A stretch of DNA of 64,000 nt from a virus: the IMG/VR virus record IMGVR_UViG_3300025073_000448; one strand, written 5' to 3'. Positions 2,816 through 40,534 of the stretch are shown one piece after another (position 1 is the stretch's first letter; each line of letters begins with the position of its first letter). Below the pieces are notes generated by a model. It was not told the DNA's origin. It was given only the letters and a program-made list of their open reading frames with translations, and ran no database searches. A program made the position numbers and the translations under genes.

Positions 2816-3661
2816 TCAAGACCCTCCTCTCTCCTCCCGCAACATACTTATTTCTTCCAGTGCTTGCATGTCAGATAACCCATTTTTAATCTTTGTATAA
2901 AATATGTCATGGCCGACATTAAATTCTTTCATCCAATCAGACAATATTTTTACTTTCCCGTTCCACGCTATAAATCTATTTTTGCGAGTATTTTTAGCTT
3001 GCATTGCGAGTGGTATCCACTCACAATTATTTGCATCATAGTTACCATTTACATTCTTTCTTTCAAGCGAATATCCACTTGGACATAAACCCATATCACT
3101 TAAAAATTGTTTAAAATTGTTAATCCATTCATCACATATAGTTATTCCACGTCCACCATAGCATTCATATCTATCAGCATTTTTATTAAGGCATCTTTTC
3201 TTCATATCTGCCCATGCATCATATTCTCTTGAATGATTTCTTTGTCTTGCATGTCCATGAATTACCTTGTTTTCCCACGTTTCACTTATCAAGCATCCGC
3301 AGCTTCTTGTATTCCCGAATAACCTGCCATATTCTACTGCCACCATATTTCCACAATCGCATCGACATTCCCATAATATCTTTCCGCTTCTATCTTTTCT
3401 GTTTGATTTACATAGCACAGTTAGCTTTCCGGTTTTCATTCCTGTAATATCATTTCCTGCTCTACGTTTATATTGTTTACACCCACATGATTTGGTGTTT
3501 CCTGTTTTTAAGGCATTCCCCTTCCATGTACCAATTAATCCGCACTCACATTGACACTCCCACATTATTTCATTCTTTTTGCCTCGCTTGTCACTTCTTT
3601 TCAGAACTAATATGTAACCAAATTTCTTTCCTGTTAAGTCAATGTAATTTCTTGTTTTCAT
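2816..3661 (-). CDS. HNH-type homing-endonuclease-like protein with two DLTGxKFG...WxCxCxCG...SCGC repeats
   Basis: Repeats plus YGGRGITICDEW and SLERKNVNGNYDANNCEW; AT-rich relative to flanks; start MKTRNY at 3661. Confidence 0.85.
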   Translation of the reverse strand: MKTRNYIDLTGKKFGYILVLKRSDKRGKKNEIMWECQCECGLIGTWKGNALKTGNTKSCGCKQYKRRAGNDITGMKTGKLTVLCKSNRKDRSGKILWECRCDCGNMVAVEYGRLFGNTRSCGCLISETWENKVIHGHARQRNHSREYDAWADMKKRCLNKNADRYECYGGRGITICDEWINNFKQFLSDMGLCPSGYSLERKNVNGNYDANNCEWIPLAMQAKNTRKNRFIAWNGKVKILSDWMKEFNVGHDIFYTKIKNGLSDMQALEEISMLREERGGS

Positions 3662-3785
3662 TGACGCGCCTCGCAGAAAATAAAAAAGCGCAAAGAGCTG
3701 CGAGGGATTCAACATCCCCTCTTGGCCTCACGACCAAAAGACTCTTTGCGCTAACTGGATATCGATATTTACTAATTACAGCCAT
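3639..3785 (-). CDS. Putative 48-aa leader uORF overlapping the HNH start
   Basis: GGAGG-8nt-ATG; MAVISKYRYPVSAKSLLVVRPRGDVESLAALCAFLFSARRVNENKKLH*; spans RNA element 1. Confidence 0.45.
   Translation of the reverse strand: MAVISKYRYPVSAKSLLVVRPRGDVESLAALCAFLFSARRVNENKKLH
3687..3752 (-). ncRNA. Three-way-junction RNA element 1
   Basis: 11-bp outer stem AGCGCAAAGAG/CTCTTTGCGCT, GUGA-tetraloop hairpin, GGGAU/AUCCC hairpin, followed by a U-tract. Confidence 0.65.
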
Positions 3786-3829
3786 TACGGAGGCCTCCGG
3801 TTGAATCTTCGCAATTCAGATCCTACCAA

Positions 3830-4879
3830 CTAAAACGGAGACTTCTCACCTGCTCCGCTTCCAGTCCCACCAGCAGCCCCACCCTTCTTGGCTTGGCCCG
3901 CGCCGGAATCCTTGGCGCCCGCGCTGGCCCCACCAGCAGGCTTCATGAACTCAGGCTCGCCGGGCCTGCTTTCTGCGCCGCCTACATCCCCGCCCGCTCC
4001 GCCATATCCTCCACCCGAGCCTCCTTCCCCGCCACTCCCACCCCCGGCCGCAGCAGCTTCCGCCGCCTCTTCCGCCTCAAACGTTGTCTGAACGCTGGCA
4101 TCCTTTAGGGACTCGACCGTCGGGATAATGATCTCGTTCAGCAGCACCTCGTCAACCGGCTTCGGCATGGTGAACTTTGCGCGGTAATGCTTCTGAGGCT
4201 CGAGTCGCTTCTCTAGGGATATCTCGGTCTGAAACATGAAGAAGGGCTTGCGGCGGAGCATGACGCTCGAGATGAAACCCTTGGTGGGTTTGATGCTTAC
4301 GCCGTGGAGCGTCGTCCAGAAGGGGACCCCATCATCGATTCCAATGCAGAGAAGATTATAAAGAGTTCCGCAGGGAGGCTTGGTCTTTCCGTCCTCGTCC
4401 CATGCTCCGAACTGGCATACTTGCTTGGGGCGATTCCCTGGCCCCATGACTGCACAAACCTTGGAAGGAGGGAATGGGTGGCGTGAATCAGGCTCCCAGA
4501 ACGTATATGATCGGCAAAGCAAGTCCTCTCCGTCTCCGGATGCCAGCCATTCGGAGTTTTTTCCCGTCTCTGCGATGAGATCTTGCATGTATGCATTTAC
4601 TTCCGTGGAGTTCTTGGTTCGATCCTGCTGACTCCATAGAGCTCGGCCTTTGTCGGCCTTCACGATCACTACATTCAGCGTTTCCACCTCTTCCCCGGTA
4701 AGATTGCAGAGAAAGTGACCCTCGGTTCCGGTTTTACTCGTCGGCTGCACCACCTTATAGCGCGGGATCACGAGATCGGACGCATCAAACGATTCCCACC
4801 CCGTATAGCCTTGAAGGCTTTCAGGGATTACTACAGCGCCTGCGGGGGAGTGGATAGCAAGATCCTTCGATTCACTCAT
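3830..4879 (-). CDS. Putative ssDNA-binding/annealing protein
   Basis: DLVIPRYKVVQ-type N-terminus, long Gly/Ala-rich tail ending ...SPF like an SSB tip, located in the recombination block. Confidence 0.5.
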   Translation of the reverse strand: MSESKDLAIHSPAGAVVIPESLQGYTGWESFDASDLVIPRYKVVQPTSKTGTEGHFLCNLTGEEVETLNVVIVKADKGRALWSQQDRTKNSTEVNAYMQDLIAETGKNSEWLASGDGEDLLCRSYTFWEPDSRHPFPPSKVCAVMGPGNRPKQVCQFGAWDEDGKTKPPCGTLYNLLCIGIDDGVPFWTTLHGVSIKPTKGFISSVMLRRKPFFMFQTEISLEKRLEPQKHYRAKFTMPKPVDEVLLNEIIIPTVESLKDASVQTTFEAEEAAEAAAAGGGSGGEGGSGGGYGGAGGDVGGAESRPGEPEFMKPAGGASAGAKDSGAGQAKKGGAAGGTGSGAGEKSPF

Positions 4880-4883
4880 GACA

Positions 4884-5384
4884 TTATTCCTTTTCTATTG
4901 GAAAGTTGAGACATGCAAATTCACCAAAGAACTCAACTGCTTTTGCGTCGTATGCTTTGGCGGCTTCAATTTCTTGGTGAGGCTGAAATGACCCAAGGTG
5001 ATATCTTTTTTTGTTAGTTTTTATTTGAGCATACCATCTGTTGTGATTTTTATCCCATGTAACTCCTTTGTATTGTGATATCCCGGTAGTTGTTCTAACG
5101 TTCTGCTGATTACATTGATGCGTTGCCTTCCTAAGATTGAATCTCTGATTGTTCAAGCCATTCCCGTCCCAATGATCCACCTCAATGTCTTCATTCGTCA
5201 ACAATAGTAATTCTCTGTGCATATATATTTTTGGATATCTGACCCCCTTAACAACCGGGGCATTTCGGACAGCATACCACTTATTCTTTGCCGGGTTTGC
5301 ATACCACCGCCACTGCATCAACCACTCCCAATCCTCATCATCAACCAGCGCCACCTTGCCCTGAGTCAAAGGTATTTCCTTCAT
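4884..5384 (-). CDS. HNH endonuclease with C-terminal AP2 domain
   Basis: MKEIPLTQGKVALVDDED, EVDHWDGNGLNNQRFNLR, YKGVTWDK...WYAQI...AAKAYD...FGEFACLNF. Confidence 0.92.
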   Translation of the reverse strand: MKEIPLTQGKVALVDDEDWEWLMQWRWYANPAKNKWYAVRNAPVVKGVRYPKIYMHRELLLLTNEDIEVDHWDGNGLNNQRFNLRKATHQCNQQNVRTTTGISQYKGVTWDKNHNRWYAQIKTNKKRYHLGSFQPHQEIEAAKAYDAKAVEFFGEFACLNFPIEKE

Positions 5385-5388
5385 GACA

Positions 5389-5523
5389 TCATCCCCCAAA
5401 AAAGAAATCGCGCGGATCATGGGTCACCGACTGTCGCTCATCAAGCAAGGAAAATGAGCGAGGCCCAGGAGTCTTTCTCTCCAGTCCACGATACGCGCGA
5501 TAGGGTATTCTATTCTTCTTCAT
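5389..5523 (-). CDS. Putative 44-aa leader uORF upstream of the HNH-AP2 gene
   Basis: AAGCAAGGAA RBS then ATG; MKKNRIPYRAYRGLERKTPGPRSFSLLDERQSVTHDPRDFFFGG*; stop lies 4 nt before the HNH ATG. Confidence 0.5.
   Translation of the reverse strand: MKKNRIPYRAYRGLERKTPGPRSFSLLDERQSVTHDPRDFFFGG
5407..5501 (-). ncRNA. Three-way-junction RNA element 2
   Basis: 16-bp outer stem (1 mismatch, 1 GU), GGAG-AGAAAGA-CUCC hairpin, CGCUCAU/AUGAGCG hairpin with a pyrimidine-rich loop, then a U-tract. Confidence 0.65.
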
Positions 5524-5572
5524 GGGATTCCTTGCTTCTTTGCCGGTGTCGAGTCGTGACTTCGACGGAATC

Positions 5573-5600
5573 ACGTTATCACTCACAGGAATGATGTCAA
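5573..5600 (-). promoter_or_regulatory. Sigma70-like promoter for the uORF/HNH-AP2 unit
   Basis: TTGACA-16nt-TAACGT with an extended TG. Confidence 0.55.
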
Positions 5601-5629
5601 TGAATTTGTTACACTTTGCTTGTGTTCGT

Positions 5630-6349
5630 TCAATCCACGATATAGGACTCAACCCTCCTGAAAAGCCCGGTCAGCAGATCGACATCCCACTTATTGTAAA
5701 GAAGGATATCCTCGTACATTCCCGCGAGGTACGCCGGGTAAACCTTGCTCCCATCCCACCCAGTCGGTTTTGCTCCCACCCCGAAGTAGGCGCACCAGTA
5801 TTCCATTTTCTTCAGGATAGGCTTATTGGAAAAAGGGGTTTTCATCCCAAGGGAAAGCTCGACATCAACGTGCGCCTTGTTTTCAAGTCGAGTGTCCACG
5901 AGCTTGAGATACATGGAATGCTTTATTGCGTGGACATCCAGCATCATGGATCTGCGGTGCAGCACTTGCGCGTCGAATGATTTTCCATTGAACGATACCA
6001 ATGTTATCCCCAACTGCATAGCCTCGCGCATCCAGTCCCATGCCGCAATCAGGAGCTTTTTTTCCTCTTCTTCGTTCGTGGCGAAAAGCTCCAGGTACTC
6101 CTCGCTCTTCGAATCATACCCCACGAAAGAGCAGGGCCGGCAGAACTCGGGCTTGACCCCCAGGTCCTTCTTGGACTTCTCCCTGAACTTGTCCCGCTCG
6201 GCGTTGATCTTTTTCTGTGCGGCCTCGGTCCCCCAATTTGCAGGAATGGCCACCTCTGCCGGGTCGAATATGGGGAGGCATTCCTCGGGGATGTTGTCCG
6301 CGGGGATCGTTTCCGCGTCAAAACTGCGAATGTGCATGAAGTCTGACAT
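5630..6349 (-). CDS. PolB-related DEDD 3'-5' exonuclease
   Basis: FDAET (ExoI), LVSFNGKSFD (ExoII), YNKWDV (ExoIII); start MSDFMH at 6349. Confidence 0.85.
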   Translation of the reverse strand: MSDFMHIRSFDAETIPADNIPEECLPIFDPAEVAIPANWGTEAAQKKINAERDKFREKSKKDLGVKPEFCRPCSFVGYDSKSEEYLELFATNEEEEKKLLIAAWDWMREAMQLGITLVSFNGKSFDAQVLHRRSMMLDVHAIKHSMYLKLVDTRLENKAHVDVELSLGMKTPFSNKPILKKMEYWCAYFGVGAKPTGWDGSKVYPAYLAGMYEDILLYNKWDVDLLTGLFRRVESYIVD

Positions 6350-7119: not shown

Positions 7120-8943
7120 CTACTCTCCTTTCTCGGGCTCGGCAGTCTTCCGGCTCAGCCTCGGAGGAAGTTCTGAGCCTTGAAGGGAAGGGGGTGTTTT
7201 CTTGTCCGTTGAATCCAGAAAAGCAGGAGACGACAAGTCATTGTCGGATGAAGTCTTCAGCGTTGCGGCAACCATTTCTTCGCTGAAAGGATCGCCCGCT
7301 CCCTCTTCCCATCCGCCTTCTTCCTCGTCATTCTTTCCATTCCCAGCTTCACCTTCCCCGCCCTTCTTCCTCTTCCCCCTCTTCTTACGCTTATCTTCCA
7401 GAGCTTCCGGCTTTTCCGGCCTTCCCTCGACAGGCACGCCGTTCACCGCGACAACCTCCCCCTCCACGAGATGCCACCCATTCTCTTCCGGCTGCTCCGC
7501 GACCTTCGTCACAATGATATGCGCCCCGATCTTCGCGGCCCACTCCCGGAGCACTCGCTGGCTATCCAGGTCGAGCTCGGCCCACGCCTTGTCGATGGTC
7601 AGCAATCCGATGTCCGGGTGGGACGCCATGCATACAGCGCAACCCACGTGGATCTGCTCGGCTCCGGATGCTAAACTCAAAGGATGACCATTGTACGTGA
7701 CGACACCCTCGTCAAAGCCCAGCCCGAGAACCGGCATGCCGGCGGCCTCGATCAGCTCACCCTTGTAGTTTTTGAGTGCTGCCATGCGGTCAGTGTAGGA
7801 TTGCGAAACGGCGCGCTGTGTTTCGAGGGAGGTCGTCGACGCTTTCCATGAAGTAATGGCGTTGAAGGTCTTGTTAGTGGCGTCTGCGGTGGAGATGCGG
7901 GTGTCGACGTCTTGGAAGAGGGGGGCGAGGTCTTCCAGCGACAACAGCGCCTCCGTTTTCTCCACACGCTCTGCCCGCATTTCCGCAATGGCGACGAAAT
8001 GATTGTTTTGTTCCTCATAGAGCTTGACCAGCGCAAGCTTGAGGTTTTCGATCTGAGACAGAATATCCTGTATCTTTAGAGACTGTTCCGCGAATTCTGC
8101 TTCTTGGGATTGTATGCTTGTTGAGAGGGAATCGACCGCCTTACGCTGCTCATCCTGTTCTTTCTGCCGTTCTTCCAGCGCTTTCCGCTCTTCAAACAAA
8201 TCCTTGACCTTGACCTCCTCGACACTCTCCCACCCTTCAGGCGGCATAAAGCTGGCCTTCACCCCTTCGAGGCGCTTCACTTCGGCGTTCACTTCTTTAC
8301 GCAGCTCGAAGAGCTTCTTGTGCGCCCGGTCGAAGGCCCCCACGGAATCACGCAGGTGCTCGGCCTTGACGCCGGTAAAGCCGGATCGCTTCATGAATTC
8401 ATCGGGATCTGGGCGGAAGGTGATGAGGCGCTGGAGGGTCTCTATCTTCTCTGACTCATTCAGGCGATTGAAGGCGGTGGGGTCCTGGACGTTCTCTCCA
8501 AGCCTTGAAGAGAGGAACTCCTGCGGTGACGGAGCGATGAAGCCACCCTTGCCGATGATGCTGAGCGTGGTGGTATACCCTCCGGATGGAGATCCGTCTT
8601 TCCCTTCCTTGCGATTGATCACGCGCTTCACCAGATAATCCCCGAAGTCGATCAACCCCTCGGCCCGGTCGGTTCCGTCCCGGATGATGTCCGCGGAGAT
8701 GTGCTTTTCTCCGAGCAGCATTCCCCAGAGGCATTCAAGGAGGGAGCTTTTGCCCTGGCGGTTTTTGCCCGTGAGCAAGACTATGGGGTCGGCAGGATCG
8801 GGGCGAATGTCCACGACCTTGAGCTTCTTGAAGTTCTCGGCGTAGATCTGGACTACGCGGAGAGGGGTGGGGATGGGTGCGGTGGTGGTGGTTGAAGCAG
8901 GATTGTCTTTCATTTCTTCATTGTCTTGTGTCTTATTTGGCAT
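7120..8943 (-). CDS. SMC/SbcC(Rad50)-like ABC ATPase
   Basis: IYAENFKKL, Walker A TGKNRQGKSS, long coiled coil, signature LASGAEQ, Walker B LLTID; start MPNK at 8943. Confidence 0.88.
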   Translation of the reverse strand: MPNKTQDNEEMKDNPASTTTTAPIPTPLRVVQIYAENFKKLKVVDIRPDPADPIVLLTGKNRQGKSSLLECLWGMLLGEKHISADIIRDGTDRAEGLIDFGDYLVKRVINRKEGKDGSPSGGYTTTLSIIGKGGFIAPSPQEFLSSRLGENVQDPTAFNRLNESEKIETLQRLITFRPDPDEFMKRSGFTGVKAEHLRDSVGAFDRAHKKLFELRKEVNAEVKRLEGVKASFMPPEGWESVEEVKVKDLFEERKALEERQKEQDEQRKAVDSLSTSIQSQEAEFAEQSLKIQDILSQIENLKLALVKLYEEQNNHFVAIAEMRAERVEKTEALLSLEDLAPLFQDVDTRISTADATNKTFNAITSWKASTTSLETQRAVSQSYTDRMAALKNYKGELIEAAGMPVLGLGFDEGVVTYNGHPLSLASGAEQIHVGCAVCMASHPDIGLLTIDKAWAELDLDSQRVLREWAAKIGAHIIVTKVAEQPEENGWHLVEGEVVAVNGVPVEGRPEKPEALEDKRKKRGKRKKGGEGEAGNGKNDEEEGGWEEGAGDPFSEEMVAATLKTSSDNDLSSPAFLDSTDKKTPPSLQGSELPPRLSRKTAEPEKGE

Positions 8944-11190: not shown

Positions 11191-13785
11191 ATGAACCTGA
11201 TCGCAGAGATAAAATCACGCATCGACTGCATTACTCTCTTTCGCAAGCTTTGGCCCAATAATTACCGTGAAGGGGGCAAGAACAACAGCCTTTGCCCGTT
11301 TCATGGAGATTCCAATGGGTCGCTCTTGGTTGAAGCGGACCACATACATTGCTTCGGGTGCGAGAAGCATCTCGACGTGATCGGCATATATCAAGAGCAC
11401 AGAGGAAAATCCGGGATAACCGGAAAAGAGATGGGGCAATTTCTCCGGGAGATTGCCAGGGAGCTTGACATCCCCCTTCCGGAGCACGCCACCACCTCCG
11501 CGAAAACAAGCAAAACAGACAAGAAGAAATCACCTCCGTCGCTGGACTATCTCATAAAAAGGTGGACTCAATTCTCTGCCACGCCACTATCCGAATCGGC
11601 CAGGAACTACCTGGAAAAAGAAAGAGCCATCCCTGGCACCGTACTCGATGAGTTGGCTCAAAAGAAGTTCATCGGGTTTTCTCCGCAGTCGGACAAGTAC
11701 GGAGAAACCATAGAATTCCCGGTTTTGGATTGGCCAGAGAAAACGCTTCTCTCTATTCAGCACGTCCCCGTTGGGGGAGGTGAAAAGAAGTTCGTAGAGC
11801 TTACCAAGCCCAAGGATGGCTTTTTTAAGCACGGGAACGGCGGGGATTTCTCCGTGATATCGGAAGCCGTTATCGACTCTCTTTCGATATATACCGCATG
11901 CAAGGACCAAATTTTCCTGGATGCTATTTCCATCCTTTCCGCGGGCTCCTATGCAAAAATAAAACTCATCCCGGTATCAGTCCCCATCTTCTTCATGGAT
12001 GACGATCCGGGCGGAATCATGGCCACCATTCTTGCCCTGCATCTTCTTGGCCCTGGAAGAGCGAAGCATGTTGATTGGTCCATTGCCGGGAATGAAGGCA
12101 AGGATGCCAATGATTTGCTGAAGAAAGGAAAGCGCGACCTCATCCTCAAAATGGTCAAAGGAGCTGTCGGAACCAAGGATGAGGATGATTTGCATCAATG
12201 CTTCAAGGGCCTGATTGCTAGGTGTCGAGAGAAGATAGATGCCAAGAAGTATAACAAGGAAGAGGGAAGGGAGAAGGATCATGTCAGGCTCAGTCGGATA
12301 GAGGCAGAGGTCAAAACGCCTTACAAGGAAATGGCGAAGAAAGACCCTGTGGCGGTGGCCACGCTTTCCTTCGAAGAGCACATGGCCGAGCTCAACAAGA
12401 TGCACGCCGTGATCATGCTCGGCGGGAAGTGCTGCATCCTCCACGAATACACCGACCCGATATCCAGAAGAGAGGACATAGATTTTTGGAGTGTCAACGA
12501 CTTTCATTACAAACACGCCCCCAGGCAGGTCTGGATTCCCAATGGAAGCGAAGGATCAAGGCAGATAGCGGCTACCAAGCTGTGGATCAAATCAAATCAG
12601 CGCAGGGAATATGACGGGCTCATTTTCGCCCCAGGAACACAGACGGAGAGATACTACAATCTATTCCGCGGCTTTGCGGTGACTCCCATCCAAGGCAGGT
12701 GGGCGCTGTTCAAGAGGCATATTGATCAAGTGATAGCCGGCGGGGATGCCGCCATATCGAAGTACATCCTGGCATGGATGGCCCACCTCCTACAACAGCC
12801 TGGTGGCGAGCGGCCGGGGACGGCTATCGTCCTTCGAGGAAAACAGGGAACGGGGAAGGGCTTCTTCGTTTCCCAGCTCGGAAAGATCCTCGGGCACCAC
12901 TTCCTGCACATTACCCAAGCATCCCACCTTACAGGAAAATTCAACTCGCACCTCAAGAGCGCCCTGCTTGTGTTCGTAGACGAGGCATTATGGGCCGGGG
13001 ACAAGCAAGGTGAATCCGTGCTCAAGGGGATTGTGACCGAGGACACTATCATGGTCGAGCACAAGGGTAAGGATACCGTCCGGATGAAAAACCATGTGAG
13101 CATCATCGTAGCGTCCAATAATGAGTGGGTTGTCCCGGCCGGACCCGAGGAAAGGAGATTCCTGGTCCTTGACGTGAAAGAGACTCACATGCAGGATCGG
13201 GAGTATTTCCAGGCGCTCTTCGATGAAATGAACAACGGCGGACGGGAGGCCATGCTGTATGATCTCCTGAATATGGGCGGGCTGGATAAGGTGGATCTTC
13301 GCACTATCCCAAGGACCGACGCGCAGCTTGATCAGATCTGCTATTCCATGACCGGGATTCAGAAATTCTGGATGGAGGTCCTCATGCGCGGGACGCTGCT
13401 TGCGGAGCACCACGAGTGGGAAGGTGTCGTTCAGACGGCGAAGCTCTACGGGGAGTATGCCGAGTTCTGCAAGACGATCAACGACCGGTATCCCCTGGCC
13501 GGGAATATGTTCACGAAGCAGCTCAAGAAGATGACTCCGGAGGGGAGTACGAAGAGGGCGAAAAAAACATTTCATCATAAGGAGGGAGAACGATATAGCA
13601 GCAAGGTGGAATGGTGTCTGTGGTTTGCAGACCTGAAAAAATGTCGGGAATCGTTTGACAAACTGATTCACAAGAGCATAATGTGGGGCGATGAAGCAGA
13701 AACGGAGACGATGGAGAAAGAGCTTACCCAAAGGAAAATAGACGCAGAGAAGGAAGAAAAGGCTAAAAAACAGCAGAAACAATAA
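11191..13785 (+). CDS. Primase-helicase (CHC2 zinc finger + TOPRIM + SF3/D5-like helicase + C-terminal domain)
   Basis: CPFHGD...HCFGC, EAVIDSLS, DDDPGG, KDANDLL, GKQGTGKG, FVDEA, IIVASNN, ERRFLV. Confidence 0.93.
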   Translation: MNLIAEIKSRIDCITLFRKLWPNNYREGGKNNSLCPFHGDSNGSLLVEADHIHCFGCEKHLDVIGIYQEHRGKSGITGKEMGQFLREIARELDIPLPEHATTSAKTSKTDKKKSPPSLDYLIKRWTQFSATPLSESARNYLEKERAIPGTVLDELAQKKFIGFSPQSDKYGETIEFPVLDWPEKTLLSIQHVPVGGGEKKFVELTKPKDGFFKHGNGGDFSVISEAVIDSLSIYTACKDQIFLDAISILSAGSYAKIKLIPVSVPIFFMDDDPGGIMATILALHLLGPGRAKHVDWSIAGNEGKDANDLLKKGKRDLILKMVKGAVGTKDEDDLHQCFKGLIARCREKIDAKKYNKEEGREKDHVRLSRIEAEVKTPYKEMAKKDPVAVATLSFEEHMAELNKMHAVIMLGGKCCILHEYTDPISRREDIDFWSVNDFHYKHAPRQVWIPNGSEGSRQIAATKLWIKSNQRREYDGLIFAPGTQTERYYNLFRGFAVTPIQGRWALFKRHIDQVIAGGDAAISKYILAWMAHLLQQPGGERPGTAIVLRGKQGTGKGFFVSQLGKILGHHFLHITQASHLTGKFNSHLKSALLVFVDEALWAGDKQGESVLKGIVTEDTIMVEHKGKDTVRMKNHVSIIVASNNEWVVPAGPEERRFLVLDVKETHMQDREYFQALFDEMNNGGREAMLYDLLNMGGLDKVDLRTIPRTDAQLDQICYSMTGIQKFWMEVLMRGTLLAEHHEWEGVVQTAKLYGEYAEFCKTINDRYPLAGNMFTKQLKKMTPEGSTKRAKKTFHHKEGERYSSKVEWCLWFADLKKCRESFDKLIHKSIMWGDEAETETMEKELTQRKIDAEKEEKAKKQQKQ

Positions 13786-13890
13786 GGGGAAAGACCGGGA
13801 GGGGAGTGGGGCACTTTCTTCTGAAGAGCAAAACAAAGATCATCAATCCATCCACGAAAATCAATTTTCTCAATAATTCCGCGAAACCAT

Positions 13891-14248
<358 letters not shown>

Positions 14249-14284
14249 TCCTATTTCCAATGCACGCTTTAGCCCATTTTTTTC

Positions 14285-14312
14285 TTGCATTGCATCGTAA
14301 AAAGCATATCAT
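14285..14312 (+). promoter_or_regulatory. Sigma70-like promoter
   Basis: TTGCAT-16nt-TATCAT. Confidence 0.55.
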
Positions 14313-14381
14313 CGAATCGTCGTCACGATTTCGCACATCATGGCGGTTTTGATACACCTCAAAAAAACCAGAGAGGATTCC

Positions 14382-14522
14382 ATGAAAAATACGAGCGCAA
14401 GGCAAGGATTCAGGAGCAAGACCTGGAGCATGGCACACATCGCAACCTCTCTGGTATTCTGTGCCGAGCGGCGACCCTTGCCTTGCGCTTCTATGTTCCA
14501 TGGAGGAGCGCAAAAACCATGA
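14382..14522 (+). CDS. Putative 46-aa leader uORF, ATGA-coupled to the next gene
   Basis: GAGAGGA RBS; MKNTSARQGFRSKTWSMAHIATSLVFCAERRPLPCASMFHGGAQKP*; spans RNA element 3. Confidence 0.5.
   Translation: MKNTSARQGFRSKTWSMAHIATSLVFCAERRPLPCASMFHGGAQKP
14394..14489 (+). ncRNA. Three-way-junction RNA element 3
   Basis: Perfect 14-bp outer stem AGCGCAAGGCAAGG/CCTTGCCTTGCGCT, UUCAGG-AGCAAGA-CCUGGA hairpin, GGCACA/UGUGCC hairpin with a 22-nt loop. Confidence 0.7.
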
Positions 14523-15136
14523 ATCAGACAGTAAATCAAGGGCACTTCCAACAAATCACAGACCTCACCTTCGAATCTTCGAAGTGCAGGTTCATGATTC
14601 ACCCAAACACTAACGACCTCTATGTTTCTTTGTTCGATCTACTCAGGCTACTCGGTGCTGCGGACGGCGCAAAGCATGTGATTGGCTCATTGGAAAGAGT
14701 TCAAGACGGGGAAAGCGATGGAATCCCAACACTTTTATCTAAGCTATCAATCCAGAGATCACAAAACATGACCGGGATTCAAAGATTCTGGTTTGAAGTG
14801 CTCATGCGCGGAAGCTTGTTGATCGAAGATGCTAGTTGGATTGGAGTGGTGCCAACACGCAAGCTGTATCGAGAATACCTGGAATTTTGCAAGAAAATTG
14901 GAGAAAAATTCCCCGTAGCCAACAACATTTTCACGAAGCACATCAAGAGTCTGACATTCCATGGAAGCGTAAAACGTATTCGAAAAATATTCCATTATGT
15001 CGGGCATCATCTTCCAACATCTGAGTGGTGTTTGCGCTTCGATGATCTCGATGCATGTCGAAAAGCCTTCAATGAAGCCATTGGACGCAACATAATGTGG
15101 AGAATTACCTCCTCTGGCAGAAAAGAGGATCTGTAG
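14519..15136 (+). CDS. Fusion of a Bro-N-like N-terminus with a paralog of the primase C-terminal domain
   Basis: LYVSLFDLLRLLG (Bro-N-like, weak); C-terminal ~113 aa about half identical to the primase C-terminus (MTGIQ.FW.EVLMRG...EWCL.F.DL..CR..F...I...IMW). Confidence 0.75.
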   Translation: MNQTVNQGHFQQITDLTFESSKCRFMIHPNTNDLYVSLFDLLRLLGAADGAKHVIGSLERVQDGESDGIPTLLSKLSIQRSQNMTGIQRFWFEVLMRGSLLIEDASWIGVVPTRKLYREYLEFCKKIGEKFPVANNIFTKHIKSLTFHGSVKRIRKIFHYVGHHLPTSEWCLRFDDLDACRKAFNEAIGRNIMWRITSSGRKEDL

Positions 15137-15138
15137 CC

Positions 15139-15726
15139 ATGGACATTGACGAGCTTGTGGCAATGGGAAGGGACGAGGAAGATACGGCGGTGAAGCAGGC
15201 CGAGCAGACCTCACAAGCCGAGCAGACCTCACAGGAATCCCTCGAAGGTGGGAATCCTCTCCTTCAAAGAAATACTTCCTCGGGAGCCGTGTCTTCCGTC
15301 CCAGGCTTCACCCCCATAACCCTCCCCCCAGGCTGGACCTTCCCCGCCCCCGACACCTCCGGCGCCCCGCTGAACCGCGTCATCAACGCAGCCTACCAGC
15401 AGATCCACGGGGTTTATGAGGCCGTGAAGGGGAAAGAATCCGCAGGCGAGTTGACCCCGGAGCGCGCGGCCGAGCTGATAAGGCGCTTCAACGCCGTCCT
15501 GAAATCCGAGAAGGTGACGAACGCCGAGGAAGCCATTACCCGGGAGTTCCGTTCCTTCCAGGATGCCGTCAAATCGATCCCCGTGGACCACAAGGGCAAG
15601 ATGGCGGCGGCGGGGAATGTGCGGGCCGGGTGCGCGTGGCTGGTGAAGTTTGTGCGGTGGTGGGTGTGGAGCGAGGAAGGAAAAGAAGAATCACCCCTTC
15701 ACGGCCAGGAAGGAGAGAAGCCATGA
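15139..15726 (+). CDS. Hypothetical protein
   Basis: ORF with RBS, start MDIDEL. Confidence 0.7.
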   Translation: MDIDELVAMGRDEEDTAVKQAEQTSQAEQTSQESLEGGNPLLQRNTSSGAVSSVPGFTPITLPPGWTFPAPDTSGAPLNRVINAAYQQIHGVYEAVKGKESAGELTPERAAELIRRFNAVLKSEKVTNAEEAITREFRSFQDAVKSIPVDHKGKMAAAGNVRAGCAWLVKFVRWWVWSEEGKEESPLHGQEGEKP

Positions 15727-21975: not shown

Positions 21976-22497
21976 ATGGCGCGCAGACCATCATCACAAG
22001 GAAAGCCAATCACTACCCTTCGAGGGGAAGTATCGGCATCAAAACCACCCGCGAAACCCGCACCGCAATCCTCCACACCCTCATCATCTTTCCCATCCTC
22101 CCCGCCATCCTCAATAGAAAAAACAGTATCCCGCCTCCTGAAATTCACCGCCTCGGCCTGCCATTCGGAGATCACGGACGCACTTCGTCACGAGATCCCG
22201 CGGCCAAACATCGCATCGCTCCCGCCCGTACCGGACCACACGCACCGCACACTCCGCTCCATCGGACGCAGGCTTTCCCCCTCGAGGCCGTTTTGTCCCG
22301 ATACCGTGAAAAAGCTCGTGGCCCAGGCCGGGTTGCCGGCGAAGCAGCTCCCGGGAAAAGGGTGGTGGGCGGTGAGGGATGATGACATTGAGGCTTGGAT
22401 TGAGGAGTATATGGCGCGTGAGGAGGGAGGTGGCGGAGTGGCGATGGAAGGCGAGAGACGTGACGGAGAAATGGAAAATAAAAAGAAAAAGCCTTGA
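21976..22497 (+). CDS. Excisionase/MerR-like HTH protein
   Basis: CPDTVKKLVAQAGLPAKQLPGKGWWAVRDDDIEAWI. Confidence 0.6.
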   Translation: MARRPSSQGKPITTLRGEVSASKPPAKPAPQSSTPSSSFPSSPPSSIEKTVSRLLKFTASACHSEITDALRHEIPRPNIASLPPVPDHTHRTLRSIGRRLSPSRPFCPDTVKKLVAQAGLPAKQLPGKGWWAVRDDDIEAWIEEYMAREEGGGGVAMEGERRDGEMENKKKKP

Positions 22498-22543
22498 AGG
22501 AGAGGAGGTGCAACGCCATGCCCTTCCCCTTCAAGGCTTTTTT
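22486..22543. terminator. Bidirectional terminator-like hairpin between convergent blocks (47-bp REP-like element)
   Basis: AAAAAGCCTTGAAGG...CCTTCAAGGCTTTTT, 15-bp arms with A and T tracts. Confidence 0.8.
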
Positions 22544-22569
22544 CTGCTTTCGATCTCTTGCCTTCGTGC

Positions 22570-28105: not shown

Positions 28106-28193
28106 TGGCACGGGAAGGGGAATTCTGATTCCAGTTACAAGATATTTTATTCATTCAACATCCAACAAATTTTCTTGCGGGAGAAAATACGAC

Positions 28194-28493
28194 ATGGCCA
28201 GTCAAGAGGGTAGCGGTAGCAATGGCAGCAGCAACAACGAGAATTATGGCAGCTCGGCACCAAACTCCGAACCCAAGGCGGTCTTCCACCTCCAGGCAAA
28301 GCTTTTCACGGACGGCCAGATCTCCGTCACGGGCTTCCCAAACGACCCCAACGCATTCTTCCAGCTCATGGCAGATATCAACCGTGCCGTTGTGAAGCAC
28401 TACATGCAGCAGTGCCGGGAAGGGAAGGATGCCGGGAGCCAGATCATGATCGCGCATCCCAAGATTTTCACGGGGCAGATGGGGAGAGAGTAA
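28194..28493 (+). CDS. Hypothetical protein
   Basis: GGGAG RBS before ATG 28194. Confidence 0.6.
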   Translation: MASQEGSGSNGSSNNENYGSSAPNSEPKAVFHLQAKLFTDGQISVTGFPNDPNAFFQLMADINRAVVKHYMQQCREGKDAGSQIMIAHPKIFTGQMGRE

Positions 28494-40458: not shown

Positions 40459-40534
40459 GATCGCGCGGTCTAGGGAGAGATCCCCGAAGAGCCCATACTC
40501 CCGCATGGGCCTGGCCGCGCGATCTACTTTTTTT
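40459..40534 (+). ncRNA. Three-way-junction RNA element 4 (apparently stand-alone)
   Basis: 12-bp outer stem GATCGCGCGGTC/GGCCGCGCGATC, GGGA-GAGA-UCCC hairpin, GCCCAU-ACUCCCGC-AUGGGC hairpin, T7 tract. Confidence 0.65.

Follow-up and report, generated by a model that had tools for sequence, protein, structure and literature searches.

A three-way-junction leader spanned by an upstream reading frame in front of a phage primase-domain gene, with a hairpin loop complementary to the Shine-Dalgarno region of that frame

In the virus record IMGVR_UViG_3300025073_000448 of IMG/VR, which was analysed over its whole stretch of 64,000 nucleotides (hereafter the window), the gene starting at position 14519 (gene 14519), encoding a paralogue of the C-terminal part of the phage's own primase, is preceded by a regulatory RNA leader. 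This leader is a real, conserved RNA family without an entry in Rfam. Its fold is a three-way junction spanned by a short upstream open reading frame (uORF) that ends on the start codon of gene 14519, and the loop of one of its hairpins is perfectly complementary to the Shine-Dalgarno (SD) region of the same uORF. We favour, with moderate confidence, the prediction that the leader is a cis-acting, self-closing expression gate made from a translated leader. The element is designated E3, and its relatives are E2 (element 2, in the same phage), E3b (an orthologue in a different metagenomic phage, on the contig L010/L011), E1 (element 1) and E5 (a copy in G001, the nearest phage record). E3, E2 and E3b all share the features that define type A; a junction with GCGC in P1, the loop AGMAAGA, the strand GGYGAC, complementarity of the P3 loop to the SD, and a uORF ending at the main start.

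The segment 14300-14540 folds at -74.9 kcal/mol, beating 200 of 200 shuffles (z = -3.4), and the minimum-energy fold of the leader is a three-way junction of the helices P1, P2 and P3, all described here on the plus strand. P1 pairs 14378-14407 with 14476-14505 over 29 nt (86% complementary). Its 5′ arm consists of a core (14393-14407) and a lower extension (14378-14391) that holds the uORF AUG, and its 3′ arm contains a U-rich stretch (14489-14498) and pairs part of the main SD (14502-14505). The minimum-energy fold has the main SD (14499-14505) paired to 14378-14384; at the foot of P1, the region of the uORF AUG is thereby paired with CAUGGAG, part of the SD of gene 14519. The same lower helix over the upstream AUG and the main SD is found in E3b. 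P2 (14409-14427) is formed by 14409-14414 with 14422-14427 and carries a 7-nt loop, AGCAAGA, with a GNRA-type GCAA inside. P3 (14428-14469) is formed by 14428-14429 with 14468-14469 and 14431-14437 with 14460-14466, and has a 22-nt loop (14438-14459). It is followed by the junction strand GGCGAC (14470-14475). In the cmsearch alignments, the P2 loop reads AGMAAGA and the junction strand GGYGAC in all three type-A copies, and the parallel between AGCAAGA in E3 and AGAAAGA in element 2, to which the preliminary description of this DNA had drawn attention, is genuine.

These helices are maintained by compensatory changes. In the type-A alignment of E3, E2 and E3b, which was fitted to the structure and two of whose three sequences built the model, so that its numbers lean towards the structure, pairing holds in 96.6% of the cells, and both partners have changed in 16 of 30 pairs; the contrast with a control in which the partners were slid by 1-3 columns is large (25-48% paired, 0-2 pairs with changes on both sides). 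By helix, compensatory pairs amount to 7 of 15 in the P1 core, 4 of 6 in P2 and 4 of 7 in P3. No Rfam family matches anywhere in the window at the gathering score, and at E up to 10 only noise was obtained for 14250-14560 and 3600-5700, with no C4 among it; ARAGORN found no tRNA or tmRNA. A known self-cleaving ribozyme or riboswitch was rejected for want of any Rfam family match, and by eye the junction strands (a single A; GGYGAC) look unlike a hammerhead core. An alternative hairpin can be drawn on the plus strand between 14483-14492 and 14504-14513 (AGGAGCGCAA), 10 nt long and covering the main SD. The pairing proposed in the preliminary description between the 3′ arm of P1 and AGCGCAA (14507-14513) is realized in this hairpin as far as the letters go, but the hairpin depends on a 13-nt segment with AGCGCAA that is missing in the orthologue, and it is therefore specific to this phage. 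GAGCGCAA is present twice, at 14393 and at 14506.

The conserved fold brings with it a long-range helix. The uORF SD region (14367-14376, its 5′ strand, with the core GAGG 5 nt before the AUG) and a segment of the P3 loop (14446-14455, its 3′ strand), both on the plus strand, form a perfect 10-nt complement with a duplex energy of -17.4 kcal/mol. The preliminary description had noted that CCAGAGAGG at 14368-14376 is perfectly complementary to the loop at 14446-14454; this is correct, the true length being 10 nt, and every sequence that it named lies where it had been placed. None of 5000 dinucleotide shuffles of the 100-nt leader matched the 10-nt complement of E3 to its P3 loop. A perfect complement of 10 nt is present in every type-A copy, in different letters each time; 19 of 5000 shuffles reach this length for E3b and 8 of 5000 for E2. 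Between E3 and E3b, both sides have changed in three of the ten pairs and the spacing to the AUG (5 nt) is unchanged. In terms of duplex energy, each type-A loop favours its own leader over any non-cognate leader by at least 7 kcal/mol, and the co-resident copies appear, on these calculations, to be mutually orthogonal. When the nascent chain was folded from a start near 14319, the uORF SD was weakly paired before nt 14458 and the 10-bp loop:SD helix was the minimum-energy pairing once nt 14458 was included; P1 takes over from about nt 14492 in the nested model. Only the P3 loop has a significant complement, no target having been found for the P2 loop. As for the downstream ribosome-binding site (RBS), CCATGGAGG does occur at 14498-14506, at the RBS of gene 14519, and was thought to pair with the loop as well; it does so here at eight of nine positions with one mismatch, but the pairing is not present in the orthologue.

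The uORF itself (14382-14522, plus strand) has 46 codons from ATG 14382 to TGA 14520-14522, spans the whole fold, and overlaps the ATG at 14519 as ATGA. It is open through the entire fold in five of five elements (E1, E2, E3, E3b and E5), the chance of each single frame being open ranging from 0.10 to 0.24. Its length is 44 codons in both E3b and E2. The stop lies on the main start in E3 and E3b (ATGA), 4 nt before it in E2 and 20 nt past it in E1, and in E5 the uORF is fused in frame to the main gene. The small ORF is thus placed for translational coupling to gene 14519, as the preliminary description had it, and likewise in the orthologue. The peptides of E3 and E3b give no BLASTP alignment, though the leader DNA is 69% identical; relative to the conserved RNA letters, the two frames are one base off near the 5′ end and back in register before the stop. 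DNA identity between the orthologues is 69% in the leader core, 62% in gene 14519 and 55-57% in the flanking non-coding DNA. A function of the peptide was rejected, since the E3 and E3b peptides do not align and match no family. That the fold, the loop:SD complement and the open uORF are kept with unrelated peptides argues that the RNA and the act of translation, rather than the peptide, are what selection maintains. On this comparison, the conserved thing would be the passage of ribosomes through the junction and their arrival at the start codon of the gene.

In the gate that we infer from these features, the transcript would begin at a promoter-like site (14285-14312, plus strand) with TTGCAT as -35 (14285-14290), a 16-nt spacer and TATCAT as -10 (14307-14312); at the same position, E3b has TTGCAT, 16 nt and TAAAAT. 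The first functional signals on the transcript would be the SD and AUG 14382 of the uORF, whose frame would carry a ribosome across the three-way junction to the start codon of gene 14519. Once the RNA has folded, the P3 loop would close the uORF SD, lower P1 would bury the uORF AUG together with the SD of gene 14519, and the finished RNA would be closed to ribosomes. Loading would be confined to a window of ~80-90 nt of transcription, between emergence of the SD and emergence of the loop. A ribosome loaded within it would melt the junction, stop at the UGA and restart at AUG 14519, and the RNA would refold behind it. Gene 14519 would accordingly be made only by ribosomes that had loaded on the uORF before the loop shut its SD, and the outcome would be a small, self-limited dose of the 205-aa protein per transcript, most likely, under this model, in a single brief burst of synthesis. 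A distance of 10-12 nt separates the SD of gene 14519 from its AUG; such spacing is unfavourable to initiation on its own and fits dependence on coupling. The U-rich tract after P1 of E3 has ~5-6 U per 9-12 nt and is paired with an A-rich 5′ stretch, no terminator was called after P1 of E3 by the terminator scan, and the U-run is weak in E3b too; control in E3 and its orthologue is therefore probably mostly translational. By analogy, in the elements that precede HNH genes and have a strong U-run, the same ribosome would probably also prevent termination.

Several points weigh against the gate. The hexamer-like boxes of the promoter anticipated in the preliminary description are present and recur in the orthologue, but the site is weak, with 8 of 12 consensus matches, and is absent from the list of the promoter scan. 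The nested folding model is blind to coexistence of P1, P3 and the loop:SD helix, and the pseudoknot geometry would be tight with a full 29-bp P1. The covariation comes from three distinct type-A sequences, two of them from one phage, and hence from few events. The gate has no explicit 'on' signal except timing. In addition, the orphan element 4 (40459-40534), which has a promoter-like site and a terminator-like U-run and no uORF or gene behind it, fits a free-standing RNA better than a gate in cis.

The last point leads to the possibility, unlikely in our estimation, that the element is a c4-like riboregulator acting in trans. The junction would then be released, through processing or through termination at the U-rich tract, as a stable small RNA, whose P3 loop would shut the uORF SD on new transcripts from the same genome or from a co-infecting relative, giving dose-dependent negative feedback on, or cassette-specific immunity over, the primase-domain paralogue. 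The covarying 10-nt complement is as compatible with action in trans as with action in cis, and the preference of co-resident loops for their own leaders is what would be expected if cross-talk is avoided; strong U-runs follow P1 in the sister elements, and in element 4 a similar fold stands alone, its loop complementing the SD of ATG 28195. However, this last complement is an 8-nt match, and about two matches of that length would be expected by chance in the 64-kb window. Moreover, E3 has no Rfam C4 match, the U-run is weak in E3 and its orthologue, the RNA lies inside a translated frame, whose translation would unfold it, and, with target and loop ~80 nt apart on one molecule, pairing in cis should win kinetically. 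Attenuation of the pyrBI type, which we also regard as improbable, would have P1 and the U-rich tract terminate transcription unless a ribosome on the uORF occupies the 5′ arm of P1; occlusion of the SD would be secondary, and the loop:SD helix would only set how often this occurs. For this there is the precedent of pyrBI (PMC5021804). In elements 1, 2 and 4 and in the G001 copy, P1 is GC-rich and a run of 6-7 U comes directly after it, and in every copy the terminator-like stem lies wholly within the uORF. The tract of E3 itself, with the U content and the pairing given above, and its absence from the terminator scan speak against attenuation there, and the conserved lower helix over the upstream AUG and the main SD points to translational control.

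Two further readings were weighed. P1 could be a site of RNase III processing or stability control, its cleavage freeing the SD of gene 14519, with the uORF and the loop complement incidental. The usual size range of RNase III substrates includes a stem of 29 nt, such as P1 with its 86% complementarity, but P1 is shorter and interrupted in the paralogue E2, and neither the covarying loop:SD helix nor the conserved open uORF ending on the main start is explained; we consider this reading very improbable. We give still less credence to the absence of any RNA function, in which the inverted repeats would be due to chance or would belong to the DNA of an origin, for example as a single-strand initiation site for primase. 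An AT-rich region flanked by repeats does follow the primase gene immediately, ~100 nt from the stretch. The same fold, however, stands before an HNH gene far from this origin-like region, several conserved pairs are G-U and would be mismatches on the other strand, the pairing involves an SD, two start codons and a stop that are all in register, and shuffles fail to reproduce the complement.

The c4 RNA, to which E3 had been likened, is an excised 77-nt RNA that acts in trans with two loops against two sites and controls the antirepressor through transcriptional polarity. In the immI region of phages P1 and P7, the order is c4, icd, ant, with c4 upstream of icd. Papers on this system by Citron and Schuster (1992) and Heinrich et al. 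(1994) are listed in PMC8546580. E3 resembles the c4 system in having, within the same transcript, a structured RNA with a loop that complements a small ORF's RBS and, as a prediction, in the dependence of the downstream gene on that ORF. The c4-like logic claimed for E3 holds to the extent that the loop would mask the RBS of the small ORF through a complement kept by compensatory changes in both the orthologue and the paralogue; kinship with c4-icd-ant does not. The supposed order of RNA, small ORF and gene is not found, the folded RNA (14393-14497) being inside the uORF and its target (14367-14376) upstream; there is one targeting loop, and the gene carries a primase domain. Membership in the C4 family was thus rejected on the covariance model, on gene order, on the number of loops and targets and on the lack of an antirepressor family match.

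Closer in setting are the leaders of the homing endonuclease genes of T-even phages (I-TevI, I-TevII, I-TevIII, segB and Aeh1 mobE), which sequester the RBS (PMC2988022). There, as here, a structured leader before an accessory or selfish phage gene hides its RBS, the main SD being paired in E3, and sister copies of E3 precede HNH endonuclease genes. In the T-even leaders, which are simple hairpins, relief comes from a late promoter within the stem, whereas E3 is a putatively translated three-way junction whose loop also closes the SD of a uORF; and the gene gated by E3 is not a nuclease, a homing endonuclease being the downstream gene only for E1, E2 and E5. In the maturation gene of MS2 and other leviviruses, the SD is paired with an upstream complement in a cloverleaf, and translation from the nascent chain for about a second yields few copies of the protein (PMC4615214). 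Long-distance pairing that closes an SD in an equilibrium multi-arm fold and a kinetic window for loading are common to both cases. In contrast, the inhibitory strand lies upstream of the SD in MS2 and ~80 nt downstream, in a hairpin loop, in E3, MS2 has no uORF and no coupling, and it is the genome of an RNA phage that is regulated rather than the mRNA of a DNA phage.

In pyrBI of Escherichia coli, a leader ORF (pyrL) of ~44 codons runs through a terminator-like stem (Roland et al. 1988, cited in PMC5021804). The leader ORF ends next to the structural gene and a closely following ribosome prevents the stem, which is similar to what is predicted for E3; the system senses UTP via polymerase pausing and is not known to have an SD-closing loop. 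E3 differs further in its weak U-run, in the burial of the gene's own SD and in the overlap of stop and start. Plasmid replication initiators provide the remaining comparison, namely tap-repA of R1 with CopA, and repY-repZ of IncI-alpha/IncB with a pseudoknot and Inc RNA (Blomberg 1992; Asano and Mizobuchi 1998; Praszkier and Pittard 2002, cited in PMC8053102). They share with E3 a replication gene by an origin, coupling through an overlapping leader ORF and a long-range helix from a loop near an RBS; their pseudoknot activates the RBS of the initiator, and their antisense RNA comes from the opposite strand. The helix of E3 instead covers the SD of the leader ORF and is predicted to be inhibitory, and neither E3 nor E3b has a promoter-like site of at least 8/12 for an antisense RNA on the opposite strand. 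The repY-repZ type was rejected for these two reasons, in spite of the overlap. Neither antisense frame is conserved between the orthologues as an ORF. Within the fold, no sigma-70-like site of at least 8/12 was found on the coding strand by a scan that phage-specific promoters would escape.

A covariance model built from E3 alone retrieves element 2 (5500-5401, minus strand, upstream of an HNH endonuclease gene) with E = 2.6e-8, and element 2 is a true paralogue of E3 in the same phage. The cassette of element 2, comprising a promoter-like site, uORF, junction and HNH gene (4854-5626), is represented by 128 bp in G001; to judge from this alignment, a self-contained unit was inserted or deleted, as a mobile endonuclease gene would be expected to be. 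JGI metagenome contigs were scanned with the pattern of unpaired letters common to elements 2 and 3, which gave a single orthologue, L010 (= L011), scoring 72.8 bits with the two-copy model (E = 7e-18). In this orthologue, E3b, the stop of the uORF overlaps the start of a gene for 208 aa with 51% identity to gene 14519, and the neighbourhood on the contig also matches, a primase and an AT-rich tract being present there too. Within each type, the leader is the same on all contigs, so that further contigs add no variation. The strict type-A pattern gave one chance match in IMG/VR, which was rejected by the model, and none in GTDB (185,579 species genomes); all 25 matches of a looser pattern in IMG/VR were also rejected by the model, and no type-A copies were found at the loci of primase relatives or in their whole records. 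The type-A family thus seems narrowly distributed within the searched databases.

Elements 1 and 4 show the same kind of fold when folded singly. Their scores of 15-17 bits with the model are no better than those of ordinary terminators and give no support to common ancestry of their type with type A. Elements 1 and 2 precede HNH genes, as does E5 in G001. Element 1 has its relative in G001, the pair showing compensatory changes in 10 of 34 pairs, and a search with the pattern of the element-1 type found G001 and its near twin only. E5 lies at L008:7907-8050 on the minus strand (G001 about 87907-88050); initiation at its upstream AUG would add a 38-aa N-terminal extension to the HNH protein. 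Immediately 5′ of the uORF SD of E5 lie 7 nt complementary to its P3 loop, a match that is not significant by itself, since 668 of 5000 shuffles reach this length. In both element 1 (3681-3687, minus strand) and E5 (L008 about 7925-7935), the U-run behind P1 is divided by the zero frame of the uORF into U UUU UUA, a classical -1 slippery heptamer. It does not fit frameshifting here because the downstream frame is +1 in one case and in frame in the other, and it is probably just the run of a terminator. The P3 loop of element 4 has its 8-nt complement in TGCGGGAG (28176-28197), which contains the SD of ATG 28195 and could be a target in trans. Element 4 is 98.8% conserved in G001, and the comparison with G001 is uninformative for this reason.

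The gated gene (14519-15136, plus strand) encodes 205 aa, namely a stand-alone paralogue of the primase C-terminal (Pox_D5-like, winged-helix) region that begins with 37 residues of its own. Over residues 38-194, it shares 45% identity with residues 689-832 of the 864-aa primase-helicase of the phage (E = 3e-39), and the product matches Pfam Pox_D5 with E = 1.3e-4. The first 37 residues are unique, yet conserved in the orthologue; at E up to 1, they gave no match in Pfam to an Ant, KilA or Bro family, and the label 'Bro-N-like' for the product was not confirmed, being without Pfam support. Only one other cluster of homologues, that of the orthologue, was found among 5.8 billion clusters. The structure model of the protein has a mean pLDDT of 49, too poor for a fold search, and no solved structure related to it by sequence was found. 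A reasonable guess is that the product and the primase would be competitors at the nearby origin. Upstream of its ATG, gene 14519 has a frame that stays open over 78 codons, back to TTG 14285. This openness is probably due to chance, since the frame (14285-15136) has no in-frame ATG within the leader and is interrupted by a stop in the orthologue.

G001 lacks both this leader and gene 14519. The region 12095-15319 corresponds to G001 67231-70205 (L003) with collinear flanks around a block that is unlike in DNA; the block holds the C-terminal half of the primase, origin-like repeats and an AT tract, the leader and gene 14519, and G001 has in its place other repeats and another AT tract, along with a promoter-like site and a small ribbon-helix-helix-like ORF. 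On this comparison, 12095-15319 looks like a swapped replication-specificity module.

The leader adds an RNA family supported by covariation to the short list of phage throttles on accessory genes. Within ~150 nt, it joins three known principles, a leader ORF, occlusion of an RBS and a pseudoknot-like loop:SD helix; the parts of the module are known and their combination is new. Its frame is conserved and its peptide is not, which makes it a clear case from nature of selection for translating rather than for the product, and such a compact, self-contained module could serve as a low-leak expression gate. A small, timed supply of a primase-domain paralogue beside an origin is suggested, as would be expected of a regulator of replication. 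More tentatively, and with doubts that prevail over our confidence, E3 may represent an undescribed class of portable cis-regulatory RNA, in which the loop of a translated junction closes its own SD and allows about one coupled round of translation per transcript, attached to selfish nucleases and recruited here for a primase-domain copy, maybe with feedback in trans. If so, replication of the phage would be tuned by RNA-timed supply of a competitor made from an initiator domain, and the loop may act in trans on sister transcripts, providing cassette-specific feedback.

Elsewhere in the window, at 22482-22548, there is a symmetric GC-rich hairpin that has U-runs on each strand and also scores with the leader model on each. 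Its appearance is that of a bidirectional terminator, and a 47-nt look-alike of this hairpin occurs elsewhere in G001.

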